Position numbers and translations under genes: made by a program
Shown here: positions 9,883 through 52,407 of the stretch, one piece after another
How the letters are laid out: each line of letters begins with the position of its first letter
Position numbering within the stretch: position 1 is the stretch's first letter
Origin: an uncultured Alphaproteobacteria bacterium
GTDB taxonomy: Bacteria; Pseudomonadota; Alphaproteobacteria; UBA6615
Assembly: GCA_964276015.1 (NCBI GenBank)
Contig: CAXYDO010000001.1
Span: forward strand, 74,627 to 138,626
Reading direction: 5' to 3'
Length of the DNA: 64,000 nucleotides
The notes under the pieces: generated by a model
What the model was told of the DNA's origin: nothing
Database searches by the model: none
What the model saw: the letters and a program-made list of their open reading frames with translations, nothing else

Positions 9883-9912
9883 CACGCCCCGCCAGAATTT
9901 AGGCGGGGCGTG
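9883..9912 (+). terminator. Intra-operon stem-loop between tctC and tctB (attenuator/partial terminator)
   Basis: Inverted repeat CACGCCCCGCC-N8-GGCGGGGCGTG followed by a T-rich stretch, 33 nt after the tctC stop. Confidence 0.45.
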
Positions 9913-9950
9913 ATTGTTTCGAATTTGCTGATCACTAAGTGAGAAATTTC

Positions 9951-10400: not shown

Positions 10401-10420
10401 AGCCGCTTCGAGGATAAGAC

Positions 10421-11950: not shown

Positions 11951-12011
11951 CCCTAATGAACCGCCTCCGTTTGAATAAAACAAAACTTTCGGCAAATTCT
12001 GGGCAACCCTG

Positions 12012-34880: not shown

Positions 34881-35369
34881 TCAGGCCGGCACTCGGTACA
34901 TGAAGTAGCGCTCGGCGGGAACACCGTCAGGGAGCGGAAGTTCATCCCAGGCATCTGCCGGAAACCGGTTATTGGCGACCAGAATGCCGCCGGGCCGCAA
35001 CATCGGCACAAGTAACGGCACGATGCGCGCAGCAAGTACCGCATCCGCGTCCGTGCCGGTTCCCAGATCCGAATGGATCAAAGCGACCGTACGACCGAAG
35101 CGGGCCCCCGCGAATGCGAGTTGTTCATCGGCTTCCCCCAGAAAGATATGCTCGTGATCCGGTGTGCTTTTCGGATTGGAGTTCACGACCCGGTCAAACA
35201 CGAACACCTTGCGCCCCACCATGGTTTCGCGCAGGTGATCGAAGGTGCGGCCATTGCCCAACCCAAGATCGAGAACCGGACCGGGGGTGTCGGCCAGCAT
35301 TTGCGCGGCCGCGTTGAGGCAATCGCGCTGGGCCTGCATCCGGCGTATAAAACTGTCGAGACGACTCAT
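34881..35369 (-). CDS. Putative class I SAM-dependent methyltransferase-like protein
   Basis: 162 aa with a Gly-rich motif I-like LDLGLGNGRT. The assignment is tentative. Confidence 0.45.
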   Translation of the reverse strand: MSRLDSFIRRMQAQRDCLNAAAQMLADTPGPVLDLGLGNGRTFDHLRETMVGRKVFVFDRVVNSNPKSTPDHEHIFLGEADEQLAFAGARFGRTVALIHSDLGTGTDADAVLAARIVPLLVPMLRPGGILVANNRFPADAWDELPLPDGVPAERYFMYRVPA

Positions 35370-35389: not shown

Positions 35390-35842
35390 CTATTTTCTCT
35401 GCGCTAGGGCCTCGCGCAATTGCTGCGTCGTGTGCTCCAGACGTGAGGCCAGTTCGCGCATGATCTCGACCGACATTTCAGGGAATTCCGCCACCAGGCG
35501 AAAGAACAGATCCTTGGTAATCCGCAACGTCACCGTCTTGGCCGAAGCCTTCACGGTCGCGGTGCGCGGCACATCGCAGAGAATGGCAATTTCACCGACA
35601 AAGTCGTTCCGGCCCAGCGCGGCGACCTCGATCTGACCCTGATCGGTATCCACCAGCACCTTGGCCGCGCCTTCGATTATGATATAGGCCGCGTCCCCAA
35701 CATCGCCCTGACAAAACAGCACCTGGCCCGCCTCATAGGTGATGCGCTCGGATGTGAACGCCAGCAGCTTGAGCTTCGAGGGCTCCAGCTTGGCGAAAAG
35801 CGGAATGTTCCGCAGCAGCTCAACTTCTTCGTTCAGGCTCAC
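35390..35842 (-). CDS. Stand-alone cyclic nucleotide-binding (cNMP) domain protein
   Basis: 150 aa: the cNMP-binding beta-roll motifs (FGEIAILCDVPRTATVKA) and a C-terminal helix, but no DNA-binding or other effector domain. GTG start with GGGAGAG upstream. Confidence 0.75.
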   Translation of the reverse strand: MSLNEEVELLRNIPLFAKLEPSKLKLLAFTSERITYEAGQVLFCQGDVGDAAYIIIEGAAKVLVDTDQGQIEVAALGRNDFVGEIAILCDVPRTATVKASAKTVTLRITKDLFFRLVAEFPEMSVEIMRELASRLEHTTQQLREALAQRK

Positions 35843-35890: not shown

Positions 35891-38545
35891 CTAGGCGGAT
35901 TCCAGCAACGCGTGAAGCGCTGTCCCATCCTGGTTTAGGTCGTCGAACGCGCCTTCTTCAACAAGGCGGCCATCATCAAGAACCACCACACGATCGAATT
36001 TTGAAGCCATCCCCACCCGGTTCACGATCCAGACGACACCCTTACGGGCGCGGGTCGCGAGGACTTTTTCAGCCAGGCGGTCCTGTGCTGAGGGGTCTAG
36101 CGCCGAGGTGGTCTCATTCAGGATCAGGAAATTAGCCCGCTTCAGTAAGGCCCGGGCAATCCCCAGCTTCTGACGCTGTCCAGTCGACAACCGGCTGCCA
36201 CTCACCCCGACCTGGAATTCCAACCCGGCCTCCAACACGGCGCCGCGCAAGCCCAGATTGTCGAGGGTATCCGCCACCAGGGCGCCGATACGGCCGCTGC
36301 CTTCAGCTTGCCCATGGACCAGTTTGCCGAACAGGATGTTGTCCTGCAGCGACCCGGCCGCATTGTAGTTTTGAGGATCGAAGAACTCGACCGCCCCTTT
36401 AAGAGAGTCGGGAAGCTTGGCGGCGAAAATCGCGCGCGCCTTCAAAATTTTGGCCTGCAATGTCTCATCGATCACGCCGAGACGATGCTGTGCCGTCACG
36501 AGCTTGAAGGGCAGGGAGAGCAGCGCGATCCGGTCCTCGGGACGCATATCGTCGAAGCCGTGTTTGTCCGTTCGCGAGAGCAGCGTACGAAACTCCGGCA
36601 GGTCTTCCGAGCTGATGAACGAATACTGTTCGAAGAACTCATGACCCGGCGGCAGATCGGCGAAAATCTCGATCATGGTTTCAGCCACTTCGCGACCGGC
36701 CTTGAGCATATCGTCGATCAAGTCGGCTTCACGCAGCACCTCGATGACGTATTCATTTTCCGCCATCAGATTGTGTTTAAAGGCGTCTCCCACCGTGGTA
36801 CCGAACAAGAGGTTTTCCGCGACACTGGCATTGGTGTTGTAGACCGCGCGGTCGAATTTCTCGACCAGGCCACGATACTCATCTTCGCCCAAACGGTCCG
36901 CCAGACCGGCCCGCGCCTTGAGAACCGATTCCGCAATATCCGGGCGCAATTCGGGGTCGACCGTGCCACGCAGACCGAGGTTGTAAATATCCTCAGAGAG
37001 CTCGACGATCTCGAGAATTTCGATCATCCGGACGAACAATTCAGCGGCGTCCGCGACCCCGGCGGCGTCATAATCGATCCAGTCCGCGCGGTAGTCGAAA
37101 TCGATATTCCCTGTCCCCGCCGCTTCCACGAAGTCACGCGCGCGTTTTATCGCTTCCGTGTCGTCATAGGCTGCCGACCGGACCGGTCGGTATTTGAGAC
37201 CGTAAAGCAGATTGTCGCGCACCGAGGCGGACTGCATGAAGGGGGCTGCGGAGACATAGGTGATCCGTCGACCGGTCACCGATTCCGGCAGTTCAATAAT
37301 ATTGTGCCCGGCGACCTGAAGCTGTCCCGATGTGGGTCGCGCCAGTCGGGCGAGCATCAGTCCGAAATAGTCCTTGCCGCTGCTGCCCGAGCCCGCCACG
37401 GCCACATTCCCGTCGATCGCGAGCTTTATACTGAGATTGGCCAGGCGGCCCACTTCGTCTTCATCGACGAGGCTGACATTGGAGATATCAAAATCGCCCT
37501 CGAACTTCAGATTTGCATCGGGATCGCCAAGCTGGAGAGTGTCATCGAGCATGTCGGGTACTTCGAACTGGCTGACCACCTGATCGTATTTGACCCGCGC
37601 ATCAGCCTGCTGCTGATACCAGTTCAGCATTTCCTTCCAAGGAGAGGACATTTCCCGATGGGCGCCGATCACCGCGACGAGCTGACCAATGTCCAAAGAC
37701 CCCTTGATCACCAGCAAGCCGCCCAAAAGATAGAAAAGAAACGGTGCCAGCTTGTCGAGGAAGTTGTTGAGGAACTTGATCATGTACTTCCGCTCAAAAA
37801 TCTCGAAGCGGATGTTGTAGATATTGCCCAGACGGTCGGCGAAGCGGCTCAGTTCCAGGTTCGATGTATCGTTCGCGTGGATGTCGACAATCCCACCGAC
37901 GGTCTCACCCACATGGTCAGACAGATGGCGGATCTGGCGCAAACGGGCCTTGCCGAGCGCGCTGACTTTCCTTTGCAGACGCGGCACCACGTAAATCTGC
38001 AGCGGGTAGAACGCCGCCGCCGCAACGCCCAGCAGCGGGTCCTGGACGATGATGAAGCCGATCGCGACAAGCAGCAATCCGCCCTGAAAGATCGGGTCGA
38101 CCACAGCACCGACGAAAAAGGCGCCGATGGGCTCAGATTCTGCGGTGATCATCGAAATGACCTCGCCCTGGCTGGCGCGCTTGAAATGAGGGATCGGGAA
38201 CCGCAAAACGCGTGAATAAAGGGAATAACGCAGCCGGCGCAACAGTCGCTCTGCCGTGCGGCCCTTCGTAATGTTGATTTTGAACTTCAGGCCGTTATTG
38301 ACGATGACGAGGGCCAAAAACAGCAGGCAGAGGGACACCAGGAAGGTGGGTTGTGATACCGCGAAGGGTATTTCGGCAAACCCAAGCAACGCCAGGGAAT
38401 AGACGTCCTGGGAGGCCCCGAGCGCCCGGTTGATGATCTGCTTGGGCAGATCGAGCAGCATGAATCCGATCGGCCAGGAAAAGACCACAAAAATCAAAAT
38501 GAAGAGTTGCTGACGTTTGCTATACCGCAGCACGAAGCTATACAT
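35891..38545 (-). CDS. Atypical ABC transporter (N-terminal type-I-exporter-like TMD plus one NBD with a triplicated helical-subdomain segment and degenerate catalytic motifs)
   Basis: 884 aa from the ATG at 38545. A six-helix TMD is followed by Walker A GSGSSGKD (Ser/Thr replaced by Asp), then three tandem copies of an S-x-x-[DE]-N-[LI]-L-[YF]-G segment (SVRDNLLYG, SVAENLLFG, SLQDNILFG). The signature LSTGQRQ follows, then Walker B ILNETT (Asp to Asn) and an H-loop IVNRV (His to Asn). Confidence 0.75.
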   Translation of the reverse strand: MYSFVLRYSKRQQLFILIFVVFSWPIGFMLLDLPKQIINRALGASQDVYSLALLGFAEIPFAVSQPTFLVSLCLLFLALVIVNNGLKFKINITKGRTAERLLRRLRYSLYSRVLRFPIPHFKRASQGEVISMITAESEPIGAFFVGAVVDPIFQGGLLLVAIGFIIVQDPLLGVAAAAFYPLQIYVVPRLQRKVSALGKARLRQIRHLSDHVGETVGGIVDIHANDTSNLELSRFADRLGNIYNIRFEIFERKYMIKFLNNFLDKLAPFLFYLLGGLLVIKGSLDIGQLVAVIGAHREMSSPWKEMLNWYQQQADARVKYDQVVSQFEVPDMLDDTLQLGDPDANLKFEGDFDISNVSLVDEDEVGRLANLSIKLAIDGNVAVAGSGSSGKDYFGLMLARLARPTSGQLQVAGHNIIELPESVTGRRITYVSAAPFMQSASVRDNLLYGLKYRPVRSAAYDDTEAIKRARDFVEAAGTGNIDFDYRADWIDYDAAGVADAAELFVRMIEILEIVELSEDIYNLGLRGTVDPELRPDIAESVLKARAGLADRLGEDEYRGLVEKFDRAVYNTNASVAENLLFGTTVGDAFKHNLMAENEYVIEVLREADLIDDMLKAGREVAETMIEIFADLPPGHEFFEQYSFISSEDLPEFRTLLSRTDKHGFDDMRPEDRIALLSLPFKLVTAQHRLGVIDETLQAKILKARAIFAAKLPDSLKGAVEFFDPQNYNAAGSLQDNILFGKLVHGQAEGSGRIGALVADTLDNLGLRGAVLEAGLEFQVGVSGSRLSTGQRQKLGIARALLKRANFLILNETTSALDPSAQDRLAEKVLATRARKGVVWIVNRVGMASKFDRVVVLDDGRLVEEGAFDDLNQDGTALHALLESA

Positions 38546-38747: not shown

Positions 38748-40007
38748 ATGGCGACCCGCAACAGGCGAGTCCTGATCTATAGCCACGATACGTTCGGCCT
38801 CGGGCATTTGCGCCGGTGCCGTGCGATCGCACATTCTCTGGTCGCCCACGATCCGGGCATCAGCGTACTTATTCTGTCCGGCTCCCCGATCATCGGCAAT
38901 TTCGAGTTTGGTGAACGGGTCGATTTCGTACGCATTCCCGGTGTGATCAAGCTGCAGAACGGCGAATACAAGCCCCTCAAGCTGCCGATGGACATCGAAG
39001 AAACCGTCGCGTTGCGCGCCAACATCATTCGCCACACCGCCCTTTCCTATGAGCCCGACGTGTTCATCGTCGACAAAGAACCCCACGGCATGCGGGGCGA
39101 GGTGCTCGACACACTGGTGGCTCTCAAAGAACGGGGCACCCAGCTGGTTCTCGGCCTGCGCGATATCCTCGACGACCCGGTGTTACTGGCCCCGGAGTGG
39201 CTGAACAAGAACGTGCTGCCGACCCTGGAAAACCTTTACGATGAAATCTGGATCTACGGCCTGCCCCAGGTCAGCAATCCGCTCGACGGCCTCGACCTGC
39301 CGGGCAAGGTCGTACGCAAGACGGTCTATACCGGCTATCTGCGTCGGGCCCTGCGCTCGAACTCGCTGCCGGTCGCTGAGCTACCTTTCAGGAACAAGCC
39401 CTATGTTCTGGTCACCGCGGGCGGCGGCGGCGACGGTGAGCAGGTATTCGACTGGGTGCTGCGCGCCTACGAGAATGACCCCGGCCAGCCCGTCCCTGCA
39501 TTTTTCGTCTTCGGGCCGTTTCTCGATCCCGACCTCCAGGCCCAGTTCAACGCCCGTATGGCGCGGCTCGACAATGTGGAATCGATCACCTTCGACAACC
39601 ACCCCGAGGCCTTCATCTCGAACGCCAGCGGCATCGTCGCCATGGGTGGTTACAACACGGTCTGTGAAATTCTCTCCTTCGACAAACCCGCCCTGATCGT
39701 GCCCCGGACCCGACCCCGGCTCGAACAGTTCCTGCGCGCCTCGCGAATGCAAGAAATGGGTTTGATCAAGATGCTGATGCCGGATTCGCCCGAAATCCTG
39801 GATAATCCACAGGAAGACTGGAAGATCATGGCAACGGCGTTGCGCCATCTGCCGCAGCAAAGCCTGCCCTCCGAGGTTGTCGTGCCCGGGCTTCTCGACG
39901 GGCTGCGCAACGTGGACCGCCTCGTCGATATCGCCGCCGGCCGCCGACGCGCCAAGATGCGGCTGGTCGAGCGCGACGTTCCAGGCCAGCACACCGGACA
40001 ATCCTGA
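38748..40007 (+). CDS. GT-B fold glycosyltransferase (GT1/GT28-like, 'predicted glycosyltransferase' family)
   Basis: N-terminus VLIYSHDTFGLGHLRRCRAIAHSL and a C-terminal Rossmann region GGYNTVCEIL. Paralogous to the gene at 43042-44253. Confidence 0.7.
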   Translation: MATRNRRVLIYSHDTFGLGHLRRCRAIAHSLVAHDPGISVLILSGSPIIGNFEFGERVDFVRIPGVIKLQNGEYKPLKLPMDIEETVALRANIIRHTALSYEPDVFIVDKEPHGMRGEVLDTLVALKERGTQLVLGLRDILDDPVLLAPEWLNKNVLPTLENLYDEIWIYGLPQVSNPLDGLDLPGKVVRKTVYTGYLRRALRSNSLPVAELPFRNKPYVLVTAGGGGDGEQVFDWVLRAYENDPGQPVPAFFVFGPFLDPDLQAQFNARMARLDNVESITFDNHPEAFISNASGIVAMGGYNTVCEILSFDKPALIVPRTRPRLEQFLRASRMQEMGLIKMLMPDSPEILDNPQEDWKIMATALRHLPQQSLPSEVVVPGLLDGLRNVDRLVDIAAGRRRAKMRLVERDVPGQHTGQS

Positions 40008-41279
40008 GTGCGCACGCGCCGGGACAACGGCGCCGACGCCGGAGTCGGGCGGGTTGCCGTCGTGCTCAAAGGCTATCCACGGCTCTCGGAAACCTTTGTC
40101 GCCCAGGAGCTGCTCGGACTTGAAGCCCGCGGCCACACAATCGACATCCATTCCCTGCGCCACCCCTACGATCCCACGACCCATCCGATCCACGACGAGA
40201 TCGCCGCCGCGGTCAGTTACCTGCCGGAGTATCTCTGGCGCGCGCCCATGCGGGTGCTGCGCGGCTGGTGGGCCGCCCGCAAGCTGCCGGGCTACGCGAC
40301 TGCCTCGCGTGATTTCTGGCAGGATTTTCGCCGCGACCGCACGTCGAACCGGCTCCGGCGGTTTGGCCAGGCTTGCGTGCTGGCCCAGGACCTGCACCCA
40401 GGGACCCGCCTGATCTACGCCCATTTTCTGCACACCCCGGCCTCGGTGGCGCGCTACGCCGCCCGGATGCGCGGCTTGCCCTTCGCAGTATCGGCCCATG
40501 CCAAGGATATCTGGACCACACCGGATTGGGAGAAACGCGAGAAGATCAGCGACGCGGCATGGATAACCACCTGCACCGCTTGCGGTGCTGACCATCTGCG
40601 CGCGCTGGTCCCGGGACAAGGTCACAAGGTTCTGCTGCACTATCACGGGCTCGATTTTGATCGCTTTACCGCGCCGGCCGCCGCCGAACGAGACCCAGGC
40701 GCGATCCGAATCGTCTCCGTGGGGCGCGTAGTCGAAAAAAAAGGTTATGACGATTTGCTGTCGGCCCTGGCGCAGCTGCCCGACACCCTTGACTGGGGTT
40801 TCGAACATATCGGCGGCGGTGCGCTCGAGGACATGATGCAGGCCCGGGCCGAACGTCTGGGCATCGCGGCGCGGATCACCTGGCAAGGACGCCAACCCCA
40901 AAGCGCAGTGAAGGCGCTGCTTGCCCAGGCCGATGTTTTTGTGCTGGCCAGCAAGATCGCCACCGATGGTGACCGGGACGGGCTGCCCAATGTTCTAATG
41001 GAAGCCCAGGCCCTTGGTGTGGCCTGTCTCTCCACCGCCGTGTCCGCCATCCCCGAGCTCATCACCGAGGGCGAAACCGGATTACTGGTGCCGCCGGGCG
41101 ATCCCGACGCGCTCGCCGCTGGGCTTGTGACATTGTCTACCGATGGTGCGCTGCGCGAACGGTTGGCCGCTGCTGGCAGCGCGCGGGTACACGCCGCGTT
41201 CAACATGGATGCCGGCATCGATGCGATTGCGGCCGCGCTGCTCGACCCCCAAACCCCGCAAACCCGGGCGGCCGCCTGA
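40008..41279 (+). CDS. Glycosyltransferase family 4 (GT4, GT-B)
   Basis: RVAVVLKGYPRLSETF N-terminus and a C-terminal EX7E-type region (EAQALGVACLSTAVSAIPELI). The GTG start abuts the upstream TGA. Confidence 0.8.
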   Translation: MRTRRDNGADAGVGRVAVVLKGYPRLSETFVAQELLGLEARGHTIDIHSLRHPYDPTTHPIHDEIAAAVSYLPEYLWRAPMRVLRGWWAARKLPGYATASRDFWQDFRRDRTSNRLRRFGQACVLAQDLHPGTRLIYAHFLHTPASVARYAARMRGLPFAVSAHAKDIWTTPDWEKREKISDAAWITTCTACGADHLRALVPGQGHKVLLHYHGLDFDRFTAPAAAERDPGAIRIVSVGRVVEKKGYDDLLSALAQLPDTLDWGFEHIGGGALEDMMQARAERLGIAARITWQGRQPQSAVKALLAQADVFVLASKIATDGDRDGLPNVLMEAQALGVACLSTAVSAIPELITEGETGLLVPPGDPDALAAGLVTLSTDGALRERLAAAGSARVHAAFNMDAGIDAIAAALLDPQTPQTRAAA

Positions 41280-41281
41280 TA

Positions 41282-42438
41282 TGCGGGTCGCGTTTTATGC
41301 TCCGATGAAGCCCCCCGACCACCCGGTTCCCTCGGGCGACCGGCATCTTGCCCGCTTGCTAATGACCGCGCTACGCCATAGTGGCCACACCCCGGAACTG
41401 ATCTCCCGCTTCGTCAGTCGCGATGGCGCCGGCGACCCGGACCGGCAAGCCCGGCTGCAAGGGCTCGGCGACAAGCTGGTCGACCGCCTCACCCGGCAAC
41501 TGGCCGCCCGGCCGCTCGAGCAACGCCCGAAAGCCTGGCTGACCTATCACCTCTATCACAAAGCCCCGGACTGGCTCGGGCCGCGAATCGCGGATGCTTT
41601 TCACATTCCCTATATCGTGGTCGAAGCTTCTTCAGCGCCGAAGCGCGCGGGCGGGCCCTGGGATATCGGCTATCAGGGCGCCAATGCGGCGATCGCACGC
41701 GCCGATGCCATCCTCACCCTCAACAGCGACGATTGGGACTGCTTGCAGCCGGTCCTGCGCGAACCGGTGCTGCACCGACGCCTGCTACCCTTCGTGGACG
41801 CCGCTCCATTCACAAAATCCCGGACGCGCCGCACCAATCTGCGGGACTGGTTCGCAGCCCGGGGCGGCTGGGACCCCGATACTGTCCTGTTACTCGCCGT
41901 GGGCATGATGCGGCCGGGCGCCAAGGAAAAGTCATACGCCGTGTTGGCCGAAGCGCTGACCCAGCTCTCCCGAACGAACTGGCATCTTTTGGTGGCGGGT
42001 GACGGACCCCAGCGCGACGCGATCACCGCGCAGCTGAACAACGCCGCGCCGGGGCGGGTCACCTTTCTTGGCACCCTCGATGAACCCGCGCTCACTGAAG
42101 CTTATACGGCCAGTGACATGCTGGTCTGGCCAGCCATCGACGAAGCCATCGGCATCGCTTTGCTGGAGGCCCAAGCCGCCGGGCTGCCTGTGGTCGCGGG
42201 CAAACAGCGCGGCGTTCCCGATATCATCGCCTCTGGGATCACCGGCCTGCTGCCCAAGCCCGGGGATGCCACCGCCTTCGCCCAGGCCCTGCAGCGGCTG
42301 ATCGACGATCCCGAGGCCCGCACCCGCATGGGCGAAGCCGCTTCCCGCCGGGTACTTGAACAATTCGATGTGCCGGTCGCTGCCGAACGCCTCGACGCCA
42401 CTTTGAAAACCGTCGCTTCTGTGGTCCGCGCCTCATGA
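41282..42438 (+). CDS. Glycosyltransferase family 4 (GT4)
   Basis: MRVAFYAPMKPPDHPVPSGDRHLARL N-terminus and a GT4 C-terminal region (EAQAAGLPVVAGKQRGVPDII). The track ORF start lies inside the upstream gene. Confidence 0.75.
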
Positions 42439-43022
42439 CCCGGCTGGTGTTTTTACGGCACGGCCTGACCGACTGGAACGTCGCGCGGCGGATGCAGGGC
42501 CACAAGGATATCCCGATCAATGACGACGGTCGGGACATGGTCGGGGTTTGGCGATTACCCCCCGACCTGGCCGACGCGAAAATCATTTCCAGCCCGCTGA
42601 TCCGGTGCATCGAAACCGCAGAAATCCTCAAATTAGCCCACCCCGAACTGGGCCCGATCGAAACCGACAAGCGGTTGATGGAGAAATCCTGGGGCATCTG
42701 GGAAGGGCGTGACCTGCACGAGATGGAGGCCGCCGTGGGCCCCGAAATCCACAGCGCAGACCACCGGCCCGAAAACGGTGAAAGCCGCCGGGACATGCTC
42801 GGACGGATCGGGGCGTTTCTGGCAGACGCGGCCCAAAGCGAGGCCCCCCGGATCGTCATCGCCCATCGCGGGGTGATCCGCACCGTCTACGGAATCGCCA
42901 CCGGCTGGGACTTGACCGGTGAAACCCCCGACGAGATGTCCCGACGACGGGCGCAGGTCTTCCGCGCAGCCCCGGACGGCACCGCGCAGATCGAACAACT
43001 CAACCTGCCCCTCAACGGTTGA
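42435..43022 (+). CDS. Histidine phosphatase superfamily protein (phosphoglycerate mutase/CobC-like)
   Basis: LVFLRHGLTDWN catalytic RHG motif; 195 aa. ATGA overlap with the upstream gene. Confidence 0.8.
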   Translation: MTRLVFLRHGLTDWNVARRMQGHKDIPINDDGRDMVGVWRLPPDLADAKIISSPLIRCIETAEILKLAHPELGPIETDKRLMEKSWGIWEGRDLHEMEAAVGPEIHSADHRPENGESRRDMLGRIGAFLADAAQSEAPRIVIAHRGVIRTVYGIATGWDLTGETPDEMSRRRAQVFRAAPDGTAQIEQLNLPLNG

Positions 43023-43041
43023 GCACAGGCAGCCCAGACCC

Positions 43042-44253
43042 ATGACCCAGCGCCCCAAAGTCTTCTTCTATGTGCAGCATCTGCTCGGTATCGGTCACCT
43101 GATGCGCGCCGGTGTCCTGACCCGCGCGATGGAATCCGCCGGGCTCGAGGTCACGCTCGTATCGGGGGGCGCCCCGGTCCCGGGATTCCAATCCGGCGCG
43201 AGCCACTTCGAACAACTGCCCCCGACCCGGGCCACAGACAAGTTTTTCAAGGTCCTGGTCGATGCGGATGATCGTCAGATCGACGATGCCTGGAAGGCCG
43301 GGCGCCGGGCGCGGTTGGTCGACGCCTTTGAACGCGTCCAGCACGACATTCTCATGATCGAATTGTTTCCGTTCGGGCGTCGCCAGATGCGGTTCGAACT
43401 CGAGCCCTTGCTCGACGCCGCGCAGGCCCGCGGATCAGACCGCCCGCTCATTGTTTCTTCCGTGCGCGACATCCTGGTCGAGCCCGGCAAGCCCGAGCGG
43501 ATCGACGAAATGGTCAGCCGCACCCGCACCTATTTCGACATGGTGCTGATTCACGGTGACGCGACCTTCATTTCCTTCGACGCGACGTTTCCCCGTATGG
43601 CAGAGATCGCCGACCTGTCGCACTACACAGGCTATGTAGCCGACCCGGCAGCATCCCGCGACGAAAACGGACCGGGCGCGGGAGAAGTGATCGTCTCCAC
43701 CGGCGGCGGTGCGGTCAGTGACGATATGCTGCAGGCCACCCTCGATGCGCGCGGACTTTCACCCCTTGCCAACACCCCCTGGCGCGTCCTGATCGGCCAC
43801 AACCTTCCCGAAGCCGAATTTACCGCTTATCGGAAAAACGTCCCAAACGGCGTCACGGTCGAGCGCGCCCGACCAGACTTCCCCGAACTGTTGGCCAATT
43901 GCGCGCTCTCAATATCCCAGGGCGGCTACAACACGGTGATGGAATTGCTGGCGGCGGGCACCCGCGCGGTCTGCATTCCCTACGCCGGCGGCCTCGAAAG
44001 TGAACAAACCCTGCGCTGCGGGCTACTAGCCGAAAAAGGTGCACTCGAAATTGTCGACTCCGACGCGGTCACCGCAGCAAATGTTGCCGCCGCAATCACC
44101 CGCGCGATGGCCCGTCCCGATCAATTTTCTGTGCCTGTAGACATGGCCGGCGCCCCAAAAACCGCCGCGATGCTTCACTCGGCACTGAATAAACATCGAA
44201 AAGCCGATTTTGGGGCCGAAACTGACGAAATCGTAGTTAACCCCGAGCCCTGA
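43042..44253 (+). CDS. GT-B fold glycosyltransferase, paralogue of 38748-40007
   Basis: VFFYVQHLLGIGHLMRAGVLTRAM N-terminus and a C-terminal GGYNTVMELL region. ATG at 43042. Confidence 0.7.
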   Translation: MTQRPKVFFYVQHLLGIGHLMRAGVLTRAMESAGLEVTLVSGGAPVPGFQSGASHFEQLPPTRATDKFFKVLVDADDRQIDDAWKAGRRARLVDAFERVQHDILMIELFPFGRRQMRFELEPLLDAAQARGSDRPLIVSSVRDILVEPGKPERIDEMVSRTRTYFDMVLIHGDATFISFDATFPRMAEIADLSHYTGYVADPAASRDENGPGAGEVIVSTGGGAVSDDMLQATLDARGLSPLANTPWRVLIGHNLPEAEFTAYRKNVPNGVTVERARPDFPELLANCALSISQGGYNTVMELLAAGTRAVCIPYAGGLESEQTLRCGLLAEKGALEIVDSDAVTAANVAAAITRAMARPDQFSVPVDMAGAPKTAAMLHSALNKHRKADFGAETDEIVVNPEP

Positions 44254-44326
44254 TCCGGCTAGTGTGAACACAACAAGGTGATCTGGGTTTAGGGGCTCGG
44301 ATACGCAGGGAGAGCTGTACGGACCC

Positions 44327-45136
44327 ATGGCCTTGGCGATGACCAAAGGCGCGCTTCAGCCAGAAACGGCATGGGAAGCCCTCACGCGCGAGCTCGACCT
44401 CTGGGAGGAGGACGGGCGCACTGCCACATTCTGGTGGCGCGACGACGATGCGGCGGACCACACGGACGCGCTCAATGAATTGCTGCTCTTGCGCACCGCC
44501 CTCGGCGTACCGCTCGCGCTTGCCGTTATTCCGGCCACCGCGACGTCTGAACTTCGTGCCGCGCTGGACCAGGGCAACGCGATCGCCGTGCTCCAGCATG
44601 GGTATTCCCACACCAATTTCGCCGGCCCCGACGACCGCAAGATCGAGCTCGACGGCAGTCGGCCCGCCACCTATGTGATCGGTGATCTGGCGACCGGGTT
44701 GCAGGCGATGGAACGCTTTGCCGGGTTTGTCCCGGTGATAGTGCCCCCCTGGAACCGCATCGCGCCGCATTTGATTCCGTTCCTGCCCGAACTCGGGTTT
44801 CGCGGCCTCAGCACTCTCGGACCCCGCAACCGGCCCTCGCCGATTGCCGGTCTGAACGCGAATAATGTCCATCTGGACGTGATCGACTGGCGGGGGCATG
44901 CGACCGGCACCGCCGGTGGCTTCCGCGGCGGCGAAGCCATCCTGGCCGACGCGGTGGCCCATCTCGAAGCACGGCGCACCGGCGCGGTAGACGCCGACGA
45001 AGCCACCGGCCTCATGACCCATCACGCGGTTATGAAAACGGATTCGAAAGAGTTTGTGCGCCAGTTTGTTGACCACACCAACCAACACCCGGCGAGCCAA
45101 TGGTTATCCGCCGAGGAAGTCTTTCCCACCCCATGA
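44327..45136 (+). CDS. Putative polysaccharide deacetylase-like protein (divergent NodB-type)
   Basis: FWWRDDDAADHTD ...VLQHGYSHTNF resembles the Asp-Asp and His-x-x-x-His metal-binding motifs of CE4 deacetylases. Family membership is inferred from these motifs only. Confidence 0.4.
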   Translation: MALAMTKGALQPETAWEALTRELDLWEEDGRTATFWWRDDDAADHTDALNELLLLRTALGVPLALAVIPATATSELRAALDQGNAIAVLQHGYSHTNFAGPDDRKIELDGSRPATYVIGDLATGLQAMERFAGFVPVIVPPWNRIAPHLIPFLPELGFRGLSTLGPRNRPSPIAGLNANNVHLDVIDWRGHATGTAGGFRGGEAILADAVAHLEARRTGAVDADEATGLMTHHAVMKTDSKEFVRQFVDHTNQHPASQWLSAEEVFPTP

Positions 45137-45687
45137 GCACGCACCGTTATCATCGCCGCGATCTGAACGCGGATTTGTTGCGCGCCGGACTGGGCAGCGC
45201 GGCCTGCATCACGCCGTTATTCCTCCTCGAGCCTGGTGCCATCGCCAGCTATGTGCTGGCCGTGCCCGCCGCGTTCTTTATTCTTTTTGGATTGCGCACC
45301 TGGGCCCATGGCCACACCCGGGTCACTCTGGACGACAGCGGCGTCGTGATCAACGGCTGGACCGCGTCTCGTCTTTCATGGCGCGATTTGGAAACCCTGA
45401 AGCTTTCCTATTTTTCGACCCGCCGCGATCGTGAGGCCGGCTGGATGCATCTCACCCTGCGGGGAGCCGGCACCAAGTTGAGCATCCATTCGAACCTCAA
45501 AGGGTTCGAAGACGTCTGCCGGCAGGCGCTGCGCGCCGCCCAGACCCACGACGTGGAATTATCAGATGCCACGGCGCGTAATTTTGCCGCCCTGGGTATG
45601 GGCAGCACGGGCGAGTTGGCCCCTCCCATTGATACAACCCCGGCCGCGCTGACCGGCTGGGGCAACCCGGCGGATTGGCGGCGATGA
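45133..45687 (+). CDS. Membrane-anchored bacterial PH-like domain protein (hypothetical)
   Basis: Two N-terminal TM helices then a soluble domain. ATGA overlap with the upstream gene. No confident family assignment. Confidence 0.4.
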   Translation: MSTHRYHRRDLNADLLRAGLGSAACITPLFLLEPGAIASYVLAVPAAFFILFGLRTWAHGHTRVTLDDSGVVINGWTASRLSWRDLETLKLSYFSTRRDREAGWMHLTLRGAGTKLSIHSNLKGFEDVCRQALRAAQTHDVELSDATARNFAALGMGSTGELAPPIDTTPAALTGWGNPADWRR

Positions 45688-47572
45688 AAGATCTTTTGAG
45701 TGTACGCGACCTGAAGGTCGAGTTCACTGTCCACGGCGAGCAGATTCGTGCTGTTGACGGCGTCTCGTTCCGCATTCGTCCCGGCAGAACCACCGCTCTG
45801 GTCGGTGAATCCGGCTCGGGAAAATCGGTTTGCAGCCAGGCGATCATGGGAATTCTCCCCAATATCGGATCTGTGGCTGGCGGGGAAATCCTGTTTACCG
45901 ACCCGAATGGCGACGGTGAAACCATTGACCTGGCCAAGCTCGATCGGGACGGCCCAAAGCTGCGGTCGATCCGTGGCGGCCGGGTGTCGATGATCTTCCA
46001 GGAGCCCATGACATCGCTATCGCCCCTGCACACGATCGGCGATCAGATTTCCGAAGCCCTGCATCTGCACCGCAAAGTGAACAAGCCAGCGGGCCGGGAA
46101 TTGTCGACCGACATGCTGCGTCTGGTTGGGTTTCCCGATCCCGCACGGGCCATGAAAACCTATCCGTTCGAACTTTCAGGCGGGCTCCGTCAGCGGGCCA
46201 TGATCGCCATGGCGCTGGTCTGCCGACCGGCTCTGCTCATTGCCGACGAGCCGACCACCGCCCTCGATGTGACAATCCAGGCCCAAATTCTCAAGCTGAT
46301 CAAGGATTTGCAATCCGAGCTGCACATGGCCGTGCTGATGATCACCCATGATCTCGGCGTGGTCGCGAATGTGGCCGAGGAAGTCGTGGTGATGTTCCGC
46401 GGCAAAGTCATGGAAAGCGGCAGCCTCGAAGCGGTCTATCAGAACCCGGGGCATCCCTATCTGAAGGCTCTTTTGAACGCTGTCCCCCGGTTCGAACTCA
46501 AGGAAGGCGAACGACTTGTCCCCCTGCGCGAGATCAAGGCAGAGACCGGCAATATGCTCAAGCCGGACGCCGACCGTGCGCGCACCAAAACCGACGGGCC
46601 GGTCCTGCGCGTCGAAAATCTGTCAAAGAGCTTCACGATCCGAAAAGGAAGCTATTTCGGCTCCCAGGAATCACGTGAGGTTCTGGCTGTCGACGATGTC
46701 AGTTTCGAGATTGCCCCCGGCGAATGCCTCGGGCTGGTGGGCGAGTCTGGCTGTGGCAAAACAACCACCTCCAAACTGATCATGCGCGCCCTGAGTACCG
46801 ATACCGGCACGGTGACCTTCTTCGAAGGCGGCCAGCCCGTTAACGTGCTGGCTCTTCAGGGGCGCGAGCTCAAGGATTTCCGCCGCCGGGTCCAGTTCAT
46901 GTTCCAGGACCCGTTCGGATCGCTGAACCCGCGCATGACCGTGTTCGATATCATTTCCGAACCGCTTATCATCCACAAGATAGGGACAGCGCAAACCCGC
47001 GCAGACGCCGTACGCGAATTGATGCGGCTGGTTGGCCTCGACCCGCGCTTCCTCAATCGCTACCCGCACAGCTTCTCCGGCGGGCAGCGCCAGCGCATCG
47101 GCATCGCCCGCGCTTTGGCTCTGAAGCCTGACGTGCTGATTTGCGACGAACCGGTCAGCGCGCTCGATGTCTCGATTCAGGCTCAGATCCTGAACCTGCT
47201 GAAGGGACCTGCAATCCGAGCTCGGGGCTGACCTATCTGTTCATCAGTCACAATCTGGCGGTTGTCGACTATATCGCCGACCGGATCGCCGTCATGTGCG
47301 CCGGGCGCCTCGTCGAAATGGCGCCAAGCAAAACCCTGTTCCGCAATCCGGCCCATCCCTACACACAGGCATTGTTGTCGGCGGTGCCCGAACCCAATAT
47401 CGAACGCAAGCTCGATCTGAGCTTGTTGATGGCGGACCGTGCGTCCGACCCGGCCAGCTGGCCTGCCCCCTTTACCATCGACGCCGATAGCCGCCCGCGG
47501 CTTGTCGAACTCGGCGATGGCCATTTTGTTCGCGCCGATCCCGATCGCGGCGCACTCCCGGAGGTCGCGTGA
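45684..47572 (+). pseudogene. Fused double-NBD ABC ATPase of a peptide/opine/nickel-type importer (DppD-DppF fusion), interrupted by a +1 frameshift near 47204
   Basis: NBD1 has Walker A, signature and Walker B intact ([28 protein letters not shown]) and NBD2 does too ([27 protein letters not shown]). Frame 1 stops at 47231 (..[13 protein letters not shown]). The true continuation [19 protein letters not shown]... is in the next frame. An extra G in AAGGGA at 47201-47206 explains the break. Confidence 0.75.
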
Positions 47573-47573
47573 C

Positions 47574-49474
47574 ATGAATTCCAGGCACACTCTTGCCATC
47601 CTCGGTCTCACCACAATTCTGGCGCTACCAACCGGAGCCGCGCAGGGCTTTGAACAGGCACCCATGCTGGCTGCCGAAGTCGAAGCCGGCAAATTGCCCC
47701 CCCTCGACCAACGCCTGCCGCAGCCGCCGCGGGTGGTCGAGACCGAATCCCTTGGTACGTATGGCGGCGATCTTCGGATCGCCATGGCCCGGTCCCCGCG
47801 ACACCCGCCTGATGACGGTTTACGGCTATGCCCGGCTGGTCGGTTACGACCAATCCTACAATCTGGTCGCCGACATTCTGGAGTCCTTCCACAGCGAGGA
47901 CGACAAGGTTTTCACCCTGACCCTGCGTGCGGGACACAAATGGTCCGACGGACATCCATTCACGACGGAGGATTTCCGTTACTGGTGGGATGACGTCGCC
48001 AACAATATCGATCTGGCACCCCTGGGGCCGCCGGTCCTGCTCAAAGTGGATGGCGAAGTCGCCAAGGTCGAGATCCTCGACGCGCGCACGATCCGCTACA
48101 GCTGGACGAAGCCAAATCCATTTTTTCTGCCCGCCCTGGCTGGCCCAAGTCCGCCCTTTCTGTTCCGGCCTGCGCATTTCCTGAAACAGTTCCACGAGAA
48201 ATATGCCGAGCCCGAAGCTCTTGCCGCATTCATCAAGAAGCGGCGCATGCGGGGCTGGGCGCCGCTACACAACAGCCAGGATAATCTCTACGACCTCGAC
48301 AACCCGAAACTGCCGACCCTTCAGCCTTGGCAGAACACAGTGCGCCCGCCGGCGCAGCAGTTTGTGTTCGTGCGCAACCCGTATTTCCACCGGGTCGACA
48401 CGGCAGGAAACCAGCTGCCTTATATCAACCGCGTATTAATGAATATTTCCGACGGCAAGCTGATCCCCGCGAAGGTCAGCGCCGGAGAGATCGACCTGCA
48501 GGCCCGCAGCCTGTTCATGAGCCATTTCACTTTCCTGAAGCGGGCGGAGAAGAAGGAAACCTTTAAAACCCGGCTTTGGGATACGGCGACAGGCGCCCGG
48601 ATCGCGATCTACCCGAACATGCATGTGGCCGACCTGGAATGGCGCAAACTGTTCCGCAACCGTGACTTCCGCCATGCGCTCAGCCTTGCGATTGATCGCG
48701 AGGAAATCAACGAAGTAATTTATTTCGGCCTCGCCGAGGCGTCCAACAACACCGTCCTGGCCCGCAGCCCCTTGTTCAAGGACAAGTACCGAGACGCCTG
48801 GGCGCGGCTGGATATCAACAAAGCCAACGCGTTGCTCGACGGGCTCGGGCTCGACAAGCGCGACGGCGATGTCCGCCTGCTTCCTGACGGGCGCCGCATG
48901 GAGATCGTAGTCGAGACTGCCGGCGAAGAAACCGAGCAGACCGACGTTCTGGAGTTGGTCCACGACACATGGTTGGAGATCGGCATCAAGATTTTCACCC
49001 GGCCGTCCCAGCGCGAAGTATTCCGCAACCGGATTTTCTCTGGCGAAACCCAGATGTGGCGTCTGGTCTGGCGTCAACAACGGGATCGTCACTGCTAATA
49101 TGAGCCCGGCCGAATTCGTGCCAACCCAGCAGGTCCAGTACCAGTGGCCCAAATGGGGACAGTATTTTGAGACCGGCGGCAAAGCTGGCGCCCCGATTGA
49201 TATGCCCGCTGCGATCGAACTTTTCGACCTATTCAAGAACTGGCAGGTCGCCCAGTCAGAAGCCGAGAGAAACACAATCTGGGAACGCATTCTCGACATC
49301 AATGCCGAGGAAACGTTCACCATTGGTGTTGTCTGCTGCACCAAACAGCCCGTTGTCGTGGCCGATGCCCTGCGCAATGTGCCCGGCGAGGCCATCTATG
49401 CCTGGGACCCCGGTGCGCATTTCGGCATTTACCTGCCTGACACGTTCTATTTCGACGACGCTGCGAGCCGCTAG
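47574..49474 (+). pseudogene. Family-5 (peptide/nickel) ABC substrate-binding protein, split across three frames by two single-base indels (about 47797 and about 49060)
   Basis: Signal peptide MNSRHTLAILGLTTILALPTGAAQG. After the TCCCCGCG run at 47793-47800 the conserved DTRLMTVYGYARLV continues in the +1 frame, which requires one missing base. The C-terminal conserved block WSGVNNGIVTANMSPAEF...QWPKWGQ is displaced again at ATGTGGCGTCTGG (about 49056-49066), which requires one extra base. Confidence 0.75.
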
Positions 49475-49477
49475 ACA

Positions 49478-50476
49478 ATGCTGCGCTATATTGCCCATCG
49501 CCTGCTCTTAATGATCCCGACCCTGCTCGCGGTGAGCGCGATCGTGTTCCTTATTATTCAGCTGCCCCCCGGGGACTATCTGGAAACCCTGATCGCAGAA
49601 ATGCAGTCCCGGGGAGAGGCCGTCGACAAGAACCAGATCGAGGCGCTACGCAGTGCCTATGGTCTCGATAAGTCGGCCATCGAACAATACTTCACGTGGT
49701 TGTTCGGCTTGCTCCAGGGCGATTTTGGGTGGTCGTTTGAACATAACCGTCCGGTGTCCGAGCTGATCGGACAGCGCATCCTCCTGACCTTCGTGGTAAC
49801 CTTCTCCACCATCCTGTTCATCTGGGTGGTGAGCTTCACCATCGGCACTTATGTCGCCACCCGCCAGTACAGCGTGCCCGACCACATCGCGACCCTGATC
49901 GGCTATCTTGGCCTGGCCACACCAAATTTCTTGCTCGCCCTTGTGCTGATGTATTTCGCCAACCAATGGTTCGACACGTCGATCGGCGGGATCATGGATG
50001 ACAAATACCGCAACCAGCCCTGGTCCCTCGACAAGATGTTCTCGGTGCTCGAGCATCTCTGGATTCCCGTGATCGTGATCGGCACCTCCGGCACCGCCGG
50101 GATGATCCGCCGCCTGCGCGCTAATCTTCTCGACGAATTACAGAAACAATATGTGGTGACCGGCCGCGCCAAAGGGCTCCACCCGCGCAAGCTGCTCTGG
50201 AAGTACCCGTTGCGCGTTGCGCTCAACCCCTTCATCGCCGATATCGGGTCGATCCTGCCCGAGGTGATCTCCGGCTCCGCCGTGGTTGCCGTGGTCCTCA
50301 ATCTCGATATTACCGGTCGTATGTTGCTCGACGCACTGCGCGCCCAGGACATGTTCCTCGCCGGGTCGTTCCTGATGTTGCTCTCCACGCTGGTGGTGGT
50401 CGGCACCCTGGCGTCGGATCTCGCGCTAGCCGCACTCGATCCCCGAATACGTCTCAGCGGGGGGGCAACCCGATGA
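49478..50476 (+). CDS. ABC transporter permease (DppB/OppB-like)
   Basis: 332 aa, six TM helices, an N-terminal MLRYIAHRLLLMIPTLL motif and an EAA-like loop. Intact. Confidence 0.85.
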   Translation: MLRYIAHRLLLMIPTLLAVSAIVFLIIQLPPGDYLETLIAEMQSRGEAVDKNQIEALRSAYGLDKSAIEQYFTWLFGLLQGDFGWSFEHNRPVSELIGQRILLTFVVTFSTILFIWVVSFTIGTYVATRQYSVPDHIATLIGYLGLATPNFLLALVLMYFANQWFDTSIGGIMDDKYRNQPWSLDKMFSVLEHLWIPVIVIGTSGTAGMIRRLRANLLDELQKQYVVTGRAKGLHPRKLLWKYPLRVALNPFIADIGSILPEVISGSAVVAVVLNLDITGRMLLDALRAQDMFLAGSFLMLLSTLVVVGTLASDLALAALDPRIRLSGGATR

Positions 50477-51678: not shown

Positions 51679-51682
51679 GAAC

Positions 51683-52407
51683 TCACGACACGATCGCCTC
51701 GGCGTCCACGACCACCAGGTCGAGTTTCGCCCCGACCCCATCGACCTGTCGGGCGCGCTGGCGCTCATAGACATGGTGCGGCTGAAACCCCTGCGCGTGG
51801 GCCAGATCGTAGATCGCCGCCAAGGTGATGGCCCGGGCGTTCTCAAATTTGGAATGCTTTTCCAGCTTGGCGGCGAGATTAACCGTGTCCCGATCACCGT
51901 GTATTCCAGTCGCGCATCATCTCCGACCGCGGCAAAGATCAGGTGCCCGGATGCCGCCGACGCGTTGACCGTAAGACTTAACTCACCGCCCTTTACCCGT
52001 TGTGCGTTCCAGTCATCCATAGACCCGATCGCGCTTTCGATAGCCCGCATGCCATCCCGGGCGTAGGTCTGGCTCGGCACCGCCGTCCCGAACGTCGCCA
52101 TAACGCCAACCCCCAAGAACTTGTCGATCACACCGTTGTTCTTTTGCACCACCGGCACGATCCGTGATTGATACTCGGAAAGCAGGCGCACCAGGCCCGC
52201 GGTGTCGAGACGATCGGACAGGGCGGTAAACCCGCGAATGTCAAAGAACACCACGGCGGCGTCACGCGGCTGGCCCTCCCCCGGATGGAGCTCGTGGTCA
52301 CCACCAATGATGTGTTCAGCGACATAGCTGTCGAAGAACCGGGATAGGTTGCGCTTTGCCGAGCCCTCGGAAGTCGCCGTCAGCAGCACGCCCCGGGCCC
52401 GCACCAC
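51683..52407 (-). pseudogene. Class III adenylate/guanylate cyclase domain protein with a -1 frameshift near 51890
   Basis: Cyclase homology domain (VVFFDIRGFTALSDRLD...EYTVIG). After EYTVIG the current frame reads junk. The conserved continuation DTVNLAAKLEKHSKFENARAITLAAIYDLAHAQGF... is in the adjacent frame up to a TGA at about 51683. The break is consistent with one missing G/C in the CCC run at 51890-51892. Confidence 0.65.

Follow-up and report, generated by a model that had tools for sequence, protein, structure and literature searches.

A predicted red/PPP-type envelope glycan module in an uncultured alphaproteobacterium and its relatives

Introduction

What might four glycosyltransferases be making when they are encoded together with a histidine phosphatase and a deacetylase-like protein, away from the usual genes for polysaccharide polymerization and export? 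This question is raised by a compact gene cluster in a stretch of 64,000 nucleotides (hereafter, the window) from an uncultured member of the Alphaproteobacteria (lineage UBA6615; assembly GCA_964276015.1, contig CAXYDO010000001.1, positions 74,627 to 138,626 of the forward strand). Seven tightly packed genes, G1 to G7, lie on the plus strand at 38748-45687 of the window, as seen both in the list of its open reading frames (ORFs) and in the sequence, and they are divergent from a gene for an atypical protein with the fold of an ATP-binding cassette (ABC) exporter. An initial annotation took the phosphatase as a sign of a phosphorylated acceptor that is dephosphorylated after glycosylation, as in the synthesis of some compatible solutes. 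Here, we report that the best-supported reading, judged by sequence comparison, is a different one: the cluster would be a member of the red/PPP-type glycan module, represented by SMb21252-SMb21271 of Sinorhizobium meliloti. This locus has already been defined genetically in two model bacteria, so it is not a new kind of system.

Results

The cluster corresponds to the red/PPP region of Sinorhizobium meliloti

A protein search of plasmid records (PLSDB) found the cluster on Rhizobium and Sinorhizobium megaplasmids, and the S. meliloti locus tags were assigned through exact-sequence look-ups and a paper supplement. On the S. meliloti megaplasmid pSymB, the region at 831-845 kb matches G1, G2, G5, the ABC-fold protein, the adjacent protein binding cyclic nucleoside monophosphates (cNMP) and an importer encoded downstream of G7, at 37-63% identity. 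G1, G2 and G5 align near full length, and in the same order, with redA (SMb21264; 50% identity), redB (SMb21265; 52%) and SMb21266 (41%). The ABC-fold protein is 37% identical to SMb21269, the cNMP-binding protein is 60% identical to SMb21270, and the four importer genes reach 52-63%, with the permeases at 60-63% against both S. meliloti and Rhizobium etli. In addition, G3 matches SMb21252 (38% over 377 aa), G6 matches SMb21253 (36% over 259 aa), and a metallo-beta-lactamase (MBL)-fold hydrolase encoded further downstream in the window is 42% identical to the product of an S. meliloti gene at 824434-825264, within the PPP region. The msbA2 operon (SMb21188-21191), which also combines glycosyltransferases with an ABC exporter, was considered as the counterpart and rejected, as it lies at ~938 kb on pSymB and the true match at 837 kb.

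The two loci therefore share orthologues of G1, G2, G3, G5, G6, the ABC-fold protein, the cNMP-binding protein, the four-gene importer, the MBL hydrolase and a class III cyclase, and the local order importer / G1-G2-G5 / ABC-cNMP is conserved. On pSymB, this order reads cyclase, secreted PF14099 lyase, importer, G1, G2, G5, ABC, cNMP and FkbM-type methyltransferase. They also differ. G4, G7 and a Methyltransf_17 gene are present in the window and absent from the S. meliloti locus, which adds a WecC-like nucleoside diphosphate (NDP)-sugar dehydrogenase, the lyase and the FkbM-type methyltransferase. Moreover, the S. meliloti locus is split, with the orthologues of G3, G6 and the MBL hydrolase located 14 kb upstream of the G1/G2/G5 set together with the dehydrogenase (COG0677, SMb21256), whereas the transferase genes of the window form one operon in a housekeeping chromosomal context. 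A WecC-like dehydrogenase also occurs in R. etli. The lyase, SMb21259, is encoded between the cyclase and the importer (positions 2645-3625 of locus L070 in our set) and was seen only in Sinorhizobium among the loci compared. Finally, a Wzx-type cluster (nodP2-smb21248) lies just upstream of the S. meliloti locus, and no such neighbour is found in the other lineages examined.

Mutant phenotypes have been published for the orthologues. In S. meliloti, transposon insertion sequencing (Tn-seq) showed a strong loss of fitness under phazolicin (log2 of ~-3.5 to -5) for insertions in nine genes, SMb21252, SMb21253, SMb21256, SMb21259, redA, redB, SMb21266, SMb21269 and SMb21271 (Travin et al. 2023, PMC10128002). 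Insertions in the ABC gene (SMb21269) and the lyase gene (SMb21259) produce the same phenotype as those in the glycosyltransferase genes, and the top genes in the first of the 19 parts of the Tn-seq table lie within smb21252-smb21271. Constructed smb21252 and smb21265 mutants had an 8-fold lower minimal inhibitory concentration, the adenylate cyclase gene cyaA was a further hit, and the product was provisionally named PPP, for 'phazolicin-protecting polysaccharide' (PMC10128002). The same authors note that Agrobacterium tumefaciens orthologues of the PPP genes came up in a pyocyanin-sensitivity screen (PMC10128002). That cluster, the 'uncharacterised glycan' locus Atu2577-Atu2592, was reported to be needed for phenazine tolerance (Gilmore & Cava 2022, PMC9790009, which cites Perry & Newman 2019). 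It encodes an ABC exporter (Atu2577), a UDP-N-acetylglucosamine (UDP-GlcNAc) dehydrogenase (Atu2582) and the glycosyltransferases Atu2583, Atu2590 and Atu2592, and its glycan seems to use UDP-GlcNAc (PMC9790009). The A. tumefaciens cluster resembles that of the window in its ABC exporter, its several glycosyltransferases and its envelope-tolerance phenotype, the orthology to the window resting on these papers; it differs in the UDP-GlcNAc dehydrogenase, which has no equivalent among the window ORFs examined. Our literature search gave no useful account of COG4671, the family of G1 and G5, or of redA, and where the name 'red' comes from could not be traced.

The module is conserved across gene orders and lineages

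A scan of one genome per species gave 66 loci onto which the window proteins were mapped; the percentages given here and in Table 1 count the 47 loci with at least 9 kb on both sides (fully flanked loci). The module occurs in Rhodospirillales, Hyphomicrobiales and Rhodobacterales, with a few gammaproteobacterial relatives, and many of its hosts are marine. The neighbourhood of the two GT-B paralogues, whose conservation the initial annotation had put forward as a check, is firmly retained: G1 and G5 are both found at every fully flanked locus. The genes are kept together with those for the ABC-fold protein, the cNMP-binding protein and the importer in at least 8 different gene orders. In Azospirillum, for example, importer-G7-G6-G5-cNMP-ABC is divergent from G1-G2-G3-G4, and other rearranged orders are found in marine Rhodospirillaceae, Roseibium, Hyphomicrobiales, Sulfitobacter and Rhizobiaceae. 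This co-occurrence through rearrangements, together with the Tn-seq phenotype of SMb21269, strengthens the tie to the atypical ABC protein that had been suspected from their proximity. The minimal core consists of the two COG4671 paralogues and one GT4 enzyme, with the importer, the pseudo-ATPase ABC protein and the cNMP genes as constant partners.

In five lineages read gene by gene, the flanks of the module are unrelated to each other. In these, Dongia, a close marine relative (L068), R. etli p42e, Sulfitobacter and Roseibium, no Wzx/Wzy, PCP/OPX export, priming phosphoglycosyl transferase or lipid A-core genes were found; a standing association with such loci, which would have spoken against a separate cluster, is therefore not seen in these five lineages, and only S. 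meliloti has a Wzx-type neighbour. When the lyase and the NDP-sugar dehydrogenase were tested as general neighbours, they were found in Rhizobiaceae only, plus a distant dehydrogenase in an Escherichia coli plasmid cluster described below.

Operon architecture in the window

The junctions, when read, are those described initially, seven co-directional genes with one TGA-GTG and two ATGA contacts. The TGA stop of G1 is followed immediately by the GTG start of G2 (40005-40010), 1 nt parts the G2 stop from the ATG of G3, and ATGA overlaps join G3 to G4 (at 42435) and G6 to G7; G4 and G5 are 19 nt apart, and G5 and G6 73 nt. Several genes start inside their listed ORFs: G3 at 41281 and not 41143, G5 at 43042 and not 42919, G7 at 45133 and not 45100, and the ABC gene probably with the Met at 38545, its ORF extending to 38761. 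The tight packing and the overlaps sustain the idea of one operon, but it does not end at 45687, because the stop of G7 overlaps the start of the importer ATPase gene as ATGA at 45684 and the importer genes continue to 51678. G1-G7 and the four importer genes form an 11-gene operon which, with a divergent three-gene operon (ABC, cNMP and Methyltransf_17), makes up the larger conserved module (Table 1).

Table 1. Features of the module in the window, with their presence at the 47 fully flanked loci
Feature	Position	Strand	Basis and remarks	Loci
Methyltransf_17, small S-adenosylmethionine-dependent methyltransferase	34881-35369	-	Pfam PF12692 4e-56; last gene of divergent operon	
cNMP-binding protein, stand-alone	35390-35842	-	Pfam cNMP_binding 4.9e-21; orthologue of SMb21270	34/47 (72%)
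Atypical ABC-exporter-fold protein	35891-38545	-	ABC_membrane + ABC_tran; orthologue of SMb21269	68%
G1, GT-B glycosyltransferase, COG4671 / GT28_C-like	38748-40007	+	Motif GLGHLRR; orthologue of redA (SMb21264)	47/47 (100%)
G2, WcaL/EpsE-like GT4	40008-41279	+	Glycos_transf_1 5.7e-33; orthologue of redB (SMb21265)	46/47 (98%)
G3, second GT4	41281-42438	+	Glycos_transf_1 1.2e-31, EX7E; orthologue of SMb21252	39/47 (83%)
G4, histidine phosphatase, branch 1	42435-43022	+	His_Phos_1 3.4e-34	34/47 (72%)
G5, second COG4671 / GT28_C-like GT-B protein	43042-44253	+	Motif GIGHLMR; G1 paralogue; orthologue of SMb21266	47/47 (100%)
G6, predicted cytoplasmic CE4-fold (NodB/DUF2334-like) deacetylase	44327-45136	+	AlphaFold/Foldseek; orthologue of SMb21253	81%
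G7, small membrane protein, two-helix hairpin + soluble domain, possibly PH-like	45133-45687	+	Hydropathy	38%
Importer ATPase, two fused ABC domains (Opp/Yej-type)	45684-47572	+	Translationally coupled to G7; frame broken near 47205-47227	81%
Importer solute-binding protein, family 5	47574-49474	+	SBP_bac_5 in the intact L068 orthologue; frame broken in window	
Two importer permeases	49478-50476 and 50473-51678	+	ATGA overlap between them	
Class III adenylate/guanylate cyclase catalytic domain	51838-52407	-	Motif FFDIRGFT only; convergent with importer	
MBL-fold hydrolase, possible cyclic-nucleotide phosphodiesterase	52572-53405	-	Lactamase_B_2 3.4e-23	

The ORFs of the 64-kb window above the length cut-offs include no gene for Wzx, Wzy, OPX/PCP proteins, a priming transferase, nucleotide-sugar synthesis or cobalamin synthesis (cob), which agrees with the earlier view that this is not a canonical exopolysaccharide or lipopolysaccharide locus. 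The neighbours are housekeeping genes, such as those for FtsK, LolA, an exonuclease III-family (Exo_endo_phos) nuclease, AmtB and RibBA. A scan for promoters and terminators across 34.5-53.6 kb gave sites no more frequent than in shuffled sequence.

Two long ORFs run antisense to module genes, one of 635 aa opposite the ABC gene (36308-38215, plus strand) and one of 506 aa opposite G1/G2 (39381-40901, minus strand). Both look like shadow frames of high-G+C DNA, without independent support. Elsewhere, at 8000-12000, the G+C content falls to 0.47-0.51 over TctC/TctA tricarboxylate transporter genes, against ~0.60 in the rest of the window.

Four soluble glycosyltransferases and a predicted deacetylase

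In Pfam, G1 and G5 match only the C-terminal domain of GT28 enzymes (Glyco_tran_28_C; 3.5e-5 and 1.3e-10, respectively), and their weak matches to the MJ1255, MGT, MurG and PseG families are far under the cut-offs. The paralogy proposed for them from a shared GLGHLRR motif (GIGHLMR in G5) can be upheld at a distance, since the two proteins align across their full length at 25% identity (E=3e-14). G1 is strongly conserved, with 62-93% identity to the window protein among 24 aligned homologues, 48-65% in more distant orders and a mean column identity of 70% over 25 homologues. Because its alignment is too uniform, its structure model is of low confidence, with a predicted local distance difference test (pLDDT) score of 61; the modelled fold matches only generic GT-B proteins (LpxB, BshA, UGTs, MurG and epimerases). 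Searches of the PDB with the sequences of G1 and G6 returned nothing specific.

G2 and G3 are GT4 enzymes, as initially called: both have the Glycos_transf_1 C-terminal domain with an EX7E-type motif (DX7E at residue 324 in G2, EX7E at residue 288 in G3). G2 aligns end to end with the EpsE and WcaL models, under their cut-offs. The nearest relatives of G3 are BshA, MshA and PimB-type enzymes. By hydropathy, none of G1-G5 has membrane segments.

G6 has no Pfam match, and some of its homologues weakly match DUF2334 and Polysacc_deac_1, below threshold. The AlphaFold model of G6 (pLDDT 90.1) finds CE4 deacetylases of peptidoglycan, chitin and xylan as its top Foldseek matches (E of ~5e-7 to 1e-5, TM-score up to 0.63), and residues D40, H91 and H95 are invariant, forming a candidate Asp-His-His metal site. 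From this model, the deacetylase-like protein of the initial annotation is predicted to be a carbohydrate deacetylase or esterase of the CE4 fold (NodB-type).

The phosphatase is an accessory member

G4 carries the catalytic motifs of its superfamily, RHG at residue 8 and AHRG, with the second catalytic His, at residue 143. It had been placed between the two GT4 genes; in fact it lies between the second GT4 gene (G3) and the second GT28-like gene (G5). Its position between G3 or G2 and G5 is kept at 41 of 48 loci, always after G3 or G2. G4 scores under every NCBIfam cut-off. The concern that it might be a CobC alpha-ribazole phosphatase is dispelled by a score of 89 bits against a cut-off of 162.9 (TIGR03162), by the kept position and by the lack of cob genes among the window ORFs examined. 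G4 is missing from 13 of the 47 fully flanked loci (28%), including that of S. meliloti, and Roseibium and Rhizobiaceae are among the lineages without it. Nor is it strictly co-inherited with G3, which occurs without G4 at 8 loci, whereas G4 occurs without G3 at 3. G4 is thus an accessory, lineage-variable member of the module.

A degenerate ABC protein beside cyclic-nucleotide genes

The membrane domain of the ABC-fold protein is of the fused MsbA/PglK/NdvA type. Across 47 homologues, R, G or A often takes the place of the Walker A Lys, and neither S nor T ever comes after it; N or S replaces the Walker B Asp in most aligned homologues, the catalytic Glu varies and the H-loop His is mostly absent. 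Moreover, Walker A and the signature motif are always 397-403 aa apart (402 in both the window and S. meliloti), ~300 above the usual distance. Given this degeneracy of Walker A, Walker B and the H-loop, the protein is unlikely to act as an ordinary ATP-driven pump. Likewise, the arrangement differs from that of Wzm/Wzt or KpsM/KpsT, which have a separate permease and a competent ATPase: here the protein is fused and its motifs are degenerate.

The cNMP-binding protein has 150 aa and no DNA-binding domain, and its gene is always beside the ABC gene where the latter is present. The Methyltransf_17 gene adjoins the cNMP gene at 16 of the 47 fully flanked loci. Cyclase genes adjoin the module in S. 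meliloti, R. etli, Roseibium and others; in the window, the cyclase ORF loses its frame after ~190 aa, and this 190-aa fragment matched nothing in the Pfam and NCBIfam scans. The MBL hydrolase weakly matches a family of cyclic-nucleotide-degrading phosphodiesterases (41 bits against a cut-off of 400) and, in Roseibium, its gene is beside the cyclase and cNMP genes. It is tempting to speculate that this hydrolase breaks down the nucleotide in a local cNMP circuit. In 14 of 14 Sulfitobacter-type loci, a gene for an 809-aa mechanosensitive channel of the MscS family is divergent from G1 (L047, 7238-9667, minus strand).

An importer related to oligosaccharide transporters

The importer is the most constant partner of the module. 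The closest solved relatives of its solute-binding protein are 5IPW (E=2e-86), SPH1118 (1e-71), the alpha-galactoside-binding protein AgpA (3e-30) and a chitin-oligosaccharide binder (7e-15), SPH1118 being a pectin-binding protein (PMC9314435); the peptide binders OppA and MppA reach only ~1e-8 to 1e-10. Since the nearest relatives bind pectin, galactosides and chitin oligosaccharides, with the peptide binders far behind, the importer most likely carries oligosaccharides, perhaps acidic ones. The solute-binding protein is not a YejA, OppA or MppA orthologue.

At all 30 loci that have G7, it immediately precedes the gene for the importer ATPase, and for this reason it belongs with the importer and not with the glycosyltransferases. 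It has a hydrophobic hairpin of two helices at about residues 17-56. A PH domain, considered for G7, was not established by relaxed Pfam scans, which gave nothing for the window protein and only sub-threshold matches in homologues (bPH_6, E=0.005 in one of nine, and DUF6585).

The glycosyltransferase genes are intact in the window. In contrast to an intact relative, the importer ATPase and solute-binding protein genes show single-base insertions or deletions in G/C homopolymer runs, at about 47205, 47227, 47794 and 49057; the L068 ATPase orthologue is an intact protein of 628 aa. These frameshifts and that of the cyclase (region 51322-52407, near 51840) reflect either mistakes in the assembly or genuine decay of the genes for the importer and for signalling.

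Comparison with other known systems

Three further systems resemble the module in part. NdvB/NdvA (ChvB/ChvA) also work without Wzx/Wzy, the cyclic beta-1,2-glucan being synthesised in the cytoplasm and then carried out by a fused ABC half-transporter of the MsbA kind, and the window ABC protein partially matches the glucan exporter families (140 bits against a cut-off of 733). The window differs in having no GT84 synthase, in its degenerate nucleotide-binding domain with a ~300-aa insertion, and in its other transferase families. The pairs of the GpgS/GpgP type share the succession of a GT-B transferase gene and a histidine-phosphatase-superfamily gene. They differ in that they have one transferase and the window four, in that the phosphatase of the module is dispensable in many lineages and the orthologue phenotype concerns the envelope, and in that the Pfam/NCBIfam searches of the cluster proteins gave no matches to GT81, GT78 or GT20 synthases.

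The third system is on the E. coli plasmid NZ_AP025755.1 (173-183 kb; L073), where G1-like (34%) and G2-like (32%) genes occur in the same order, followed by a gene for an exporter-fold ABC protein. In all, this cluster holds a GT28-like gene, two GT4 genes, the ABC exporter, two kinases, an alginate-export porin and a nucleotide-sugar dehydrogenase. Unlike the window, it has canonical ABC motifs, kinases instead of a phosphatase and an outer-membrane porin, and it has no G5 paralogue, importer or cNMP gene. The plasmid is of the IncF type and also carries F4 fimbria genes.

Discussion

Our favoured explanation, to which we give a probability of about 0.65, is that G1-G7 are the biosynthetic core of a red/PPP module that makes a protective envelope glycan, exported with the ABC protein and recaptured by the importer. 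Soluble cytoplasmic GT-B enzymes, the presumably inverting GT28/GT1-like G1 and G5 and the retaining GT4 enzymes G2 and G3, would assemble the glycan at the inner face of the inner membrane, probably with GlcNAc-derived and uronic-type sugars. G6, with its CE4 fold, would remove acetyl groups, and G4 could be a lineage-specific helper that takes phosphate off an intermediate or a primer. The ABC-fold protein, despite its degenerate ATP site, would help the product to cross the inner membrane, probably under the control of the adjacent cNMP-binding protein, the cyclase and the MBL hydrolase. In the envelope, the glycan would act as a protective barrier, and the co-transcribed oligosaccharide-type importer, with G7 associated, may take fragments of it back up. 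Our comparison establishes the gene content, the operon structure, the orthology with its synteny, the CE4 fold and the degenerate ABC motifs, and the mutant phenotypes are those published for the orthologues. Whether the product would be a polymer or an oligomer is left to conjecture in this scheme, as are the sugar composition, the role of G4, the cNMP gating and the recapture.

Several hints point to an acidic glycan: the WecC-like dehydrogenase of S. meliloti and R. etli, the PF14099 lyase of S. meliloti, the pectin-type solute-binding protein and the E. coli plasmid cluster. For the window, however, an acidic composition is an extrapolation, because the lyase and the dehydrogenase are linked to the module only in Rhizobiaceae. 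More broadly, the sugar composition and polymer length proposed here are carried over from other lineages, since the window ORFs examined hold no dehydrogenase, lyase, priming or outer-membrane gene.

This absence also weighs against our explanation, and so do other observations. The poor model of G1 allows no donor or acceptor specificity to be read from its fold, and the degenerate Walker A, Walker B and H-loop residues make ATP-driven export by the ABC protein doubtful. At ~30% of the loci, no ABC and cNMP genes lie within 10 kb; in Sulfitobacter, which lacks both, the MscS-family channel stands in their place. In the window, the importer and cyclase genes are frameshifted, and the importer genes are not among the top genes in the first of the 19 parts of the S. 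meliloti Tn-seq table (PMC10128002). Finally, where the literature calls the product of the orthologues a 'polysaccharide', it does so from annotation and phenotype and not from a chemical structure.

Beyond this, one could speculate that the module is a distinct and widespread system of secretion and turnover, in which the ABC-fold protein, without ATP hydrolysis and with its ~300-aa insertion, serves as a cNMP-gated conduit or scaffold for the soluble GT-B enzymes, the glycan is continually re-imported in the form of oligosaccharides by the dedicated importer, and accessories that vary with the lineage, here the histidine phosphatase and the small membrane protein, tune its chemistry. We regard this bolder version as rather unlikely.

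A serious alternative to an exported, recaptured glycan, albeit one we hold to be unlikely, is a short oligosaccharide of 3-4 sugars built on a lipid acceptor (an undecaprenyl-like carrier or a membrane lipid) and flipped by the MsbA/PglK-like ABC protein, with the phosphatase trimming a lipid-linked intermediate. The type of the ABC membrane domain is the one expected, the glycosyltransferases number just three or four, the ORFs examined include no gene for a polymerase or for chain-length control, and G1 and G5, through their weak MurG and MGT matches, resemble GT28-type enzymes that act on lipid acceptors. Moreover, the envelope-barrier phenotypes of the orthologues would fit a surface glycolipid equally well. 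Yet the secreted lyase of S. meliloti shares the transferase phenotype, which implies a polymeric, uronate-containing substrate, and the distant E. coli relative has an alginate-export-type porin. Similarly, the conserved oligosaccharide importer suits soluble fragments better than a lipid, and no lipid-binding or acyltransferase gene is present.

The model of the initial annotation, in which a GT4 enzyme glycosylates a small phosphorylated acceptor that the phosphatase then dephosphorylates (as for GpgS/GpgP, SPS/SPP and MshA), can be taken further: other transferases would extend the product to a small soluble glycoside or osmolyte, released through the ABC protein or a channel and recaptured by the importer. 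It draws on the translational coupling of G4 to G3, on a glucosyl-3-phosphoglycerate phosphatase among the PDB matches of G4 (E=4.7e-11), and on BshA, MshA and sucrose-phosphate-synthase-like enzymes among the closest solved relatives of G3. The lack of polymer machinery, the replacement of ABC/cNMP by the MscS-family channel in Sulfitobacter, a dedicated importer suited to recapturing a leaked solute and the marine habitat of many hosts would also be in line with it. However, the idea is weakened because G4 is accessory, being dispensable to the functional module of S. meliloti and only loosely co-inherited with G3, and because the orthologue phenotypes are those of an envelope barrier, for which a drain on UDP-GlcNAc has been proposed (PMC10128002, PMC9790009). 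In addition, the matches of G4 are all generic and under the family cut-offs, no GT81, GT78 or GT20 synthase accompanies it, and the lyase, the dehydrogenase and the pectin-type solute-binding protein indicate an acidic glycan. The published mutant work speaks for an abundant glycan of the envelope, presumably made from UDP-GlcNAc, rather than for a small solute of the cytoplasm, and we consider the solute model improbable.

The least credible proposal, which we judge very improbable, is a catabolic or salvage locus whose importer takes up acidic or acetylated oligosaccharides, with the GT-B proteins as phosphorylases or transglycosylases and the deacetylase and phosphatase processing the products: the co-transcribed importer found at ~81% of the loci, a cytoplasmic CE4 esterase/deacetylase and phosphatase suited to breakdown and the secreted lyase upstream in S. 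meliloti could be read in this way. However, genes for glycoside hydrolases or sugar catabolism are missing, and a set of four GT-B transferases whose donor-binding motifs (EX7E) are intact is typical of biosynthesis. Cells that lose the orthologues become more sensitive to antibiotics, a loss that is also proposed to save UDP-GlcNAc, which argues for synthesis and not breakdown, and an exporter-fold ABC protein is required for the same phenotype.

Returning to the protective envelope glycan, the orthologous loci affect tolerance to a ribosome-targeting peptide antibiotic in S. meliloti and to phenazines in A. tumefaciens. They may also affect symbiosis, and their use of UDP-GlcNAc seems heavy enough for an interaction with cell-wall recycling. 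None of the published accounts we found brings together how widely the module is conserved, its minimal core, the importer of the oligosaccharide type, the ABC pseudo-ATPase and the cNMP genes. The degenerate, insertion-bearing ABC domain and the linkage to the cNMP and importer genes are unexplored parts of the module, and the core and its constant partners offer handles on the structure, export and regulation of the glycan. Taken in this breadth, the module is no rhizobial peculiarity: many Alphaproteobacteria of the sea and the soil share it as a general feature of their envelope.

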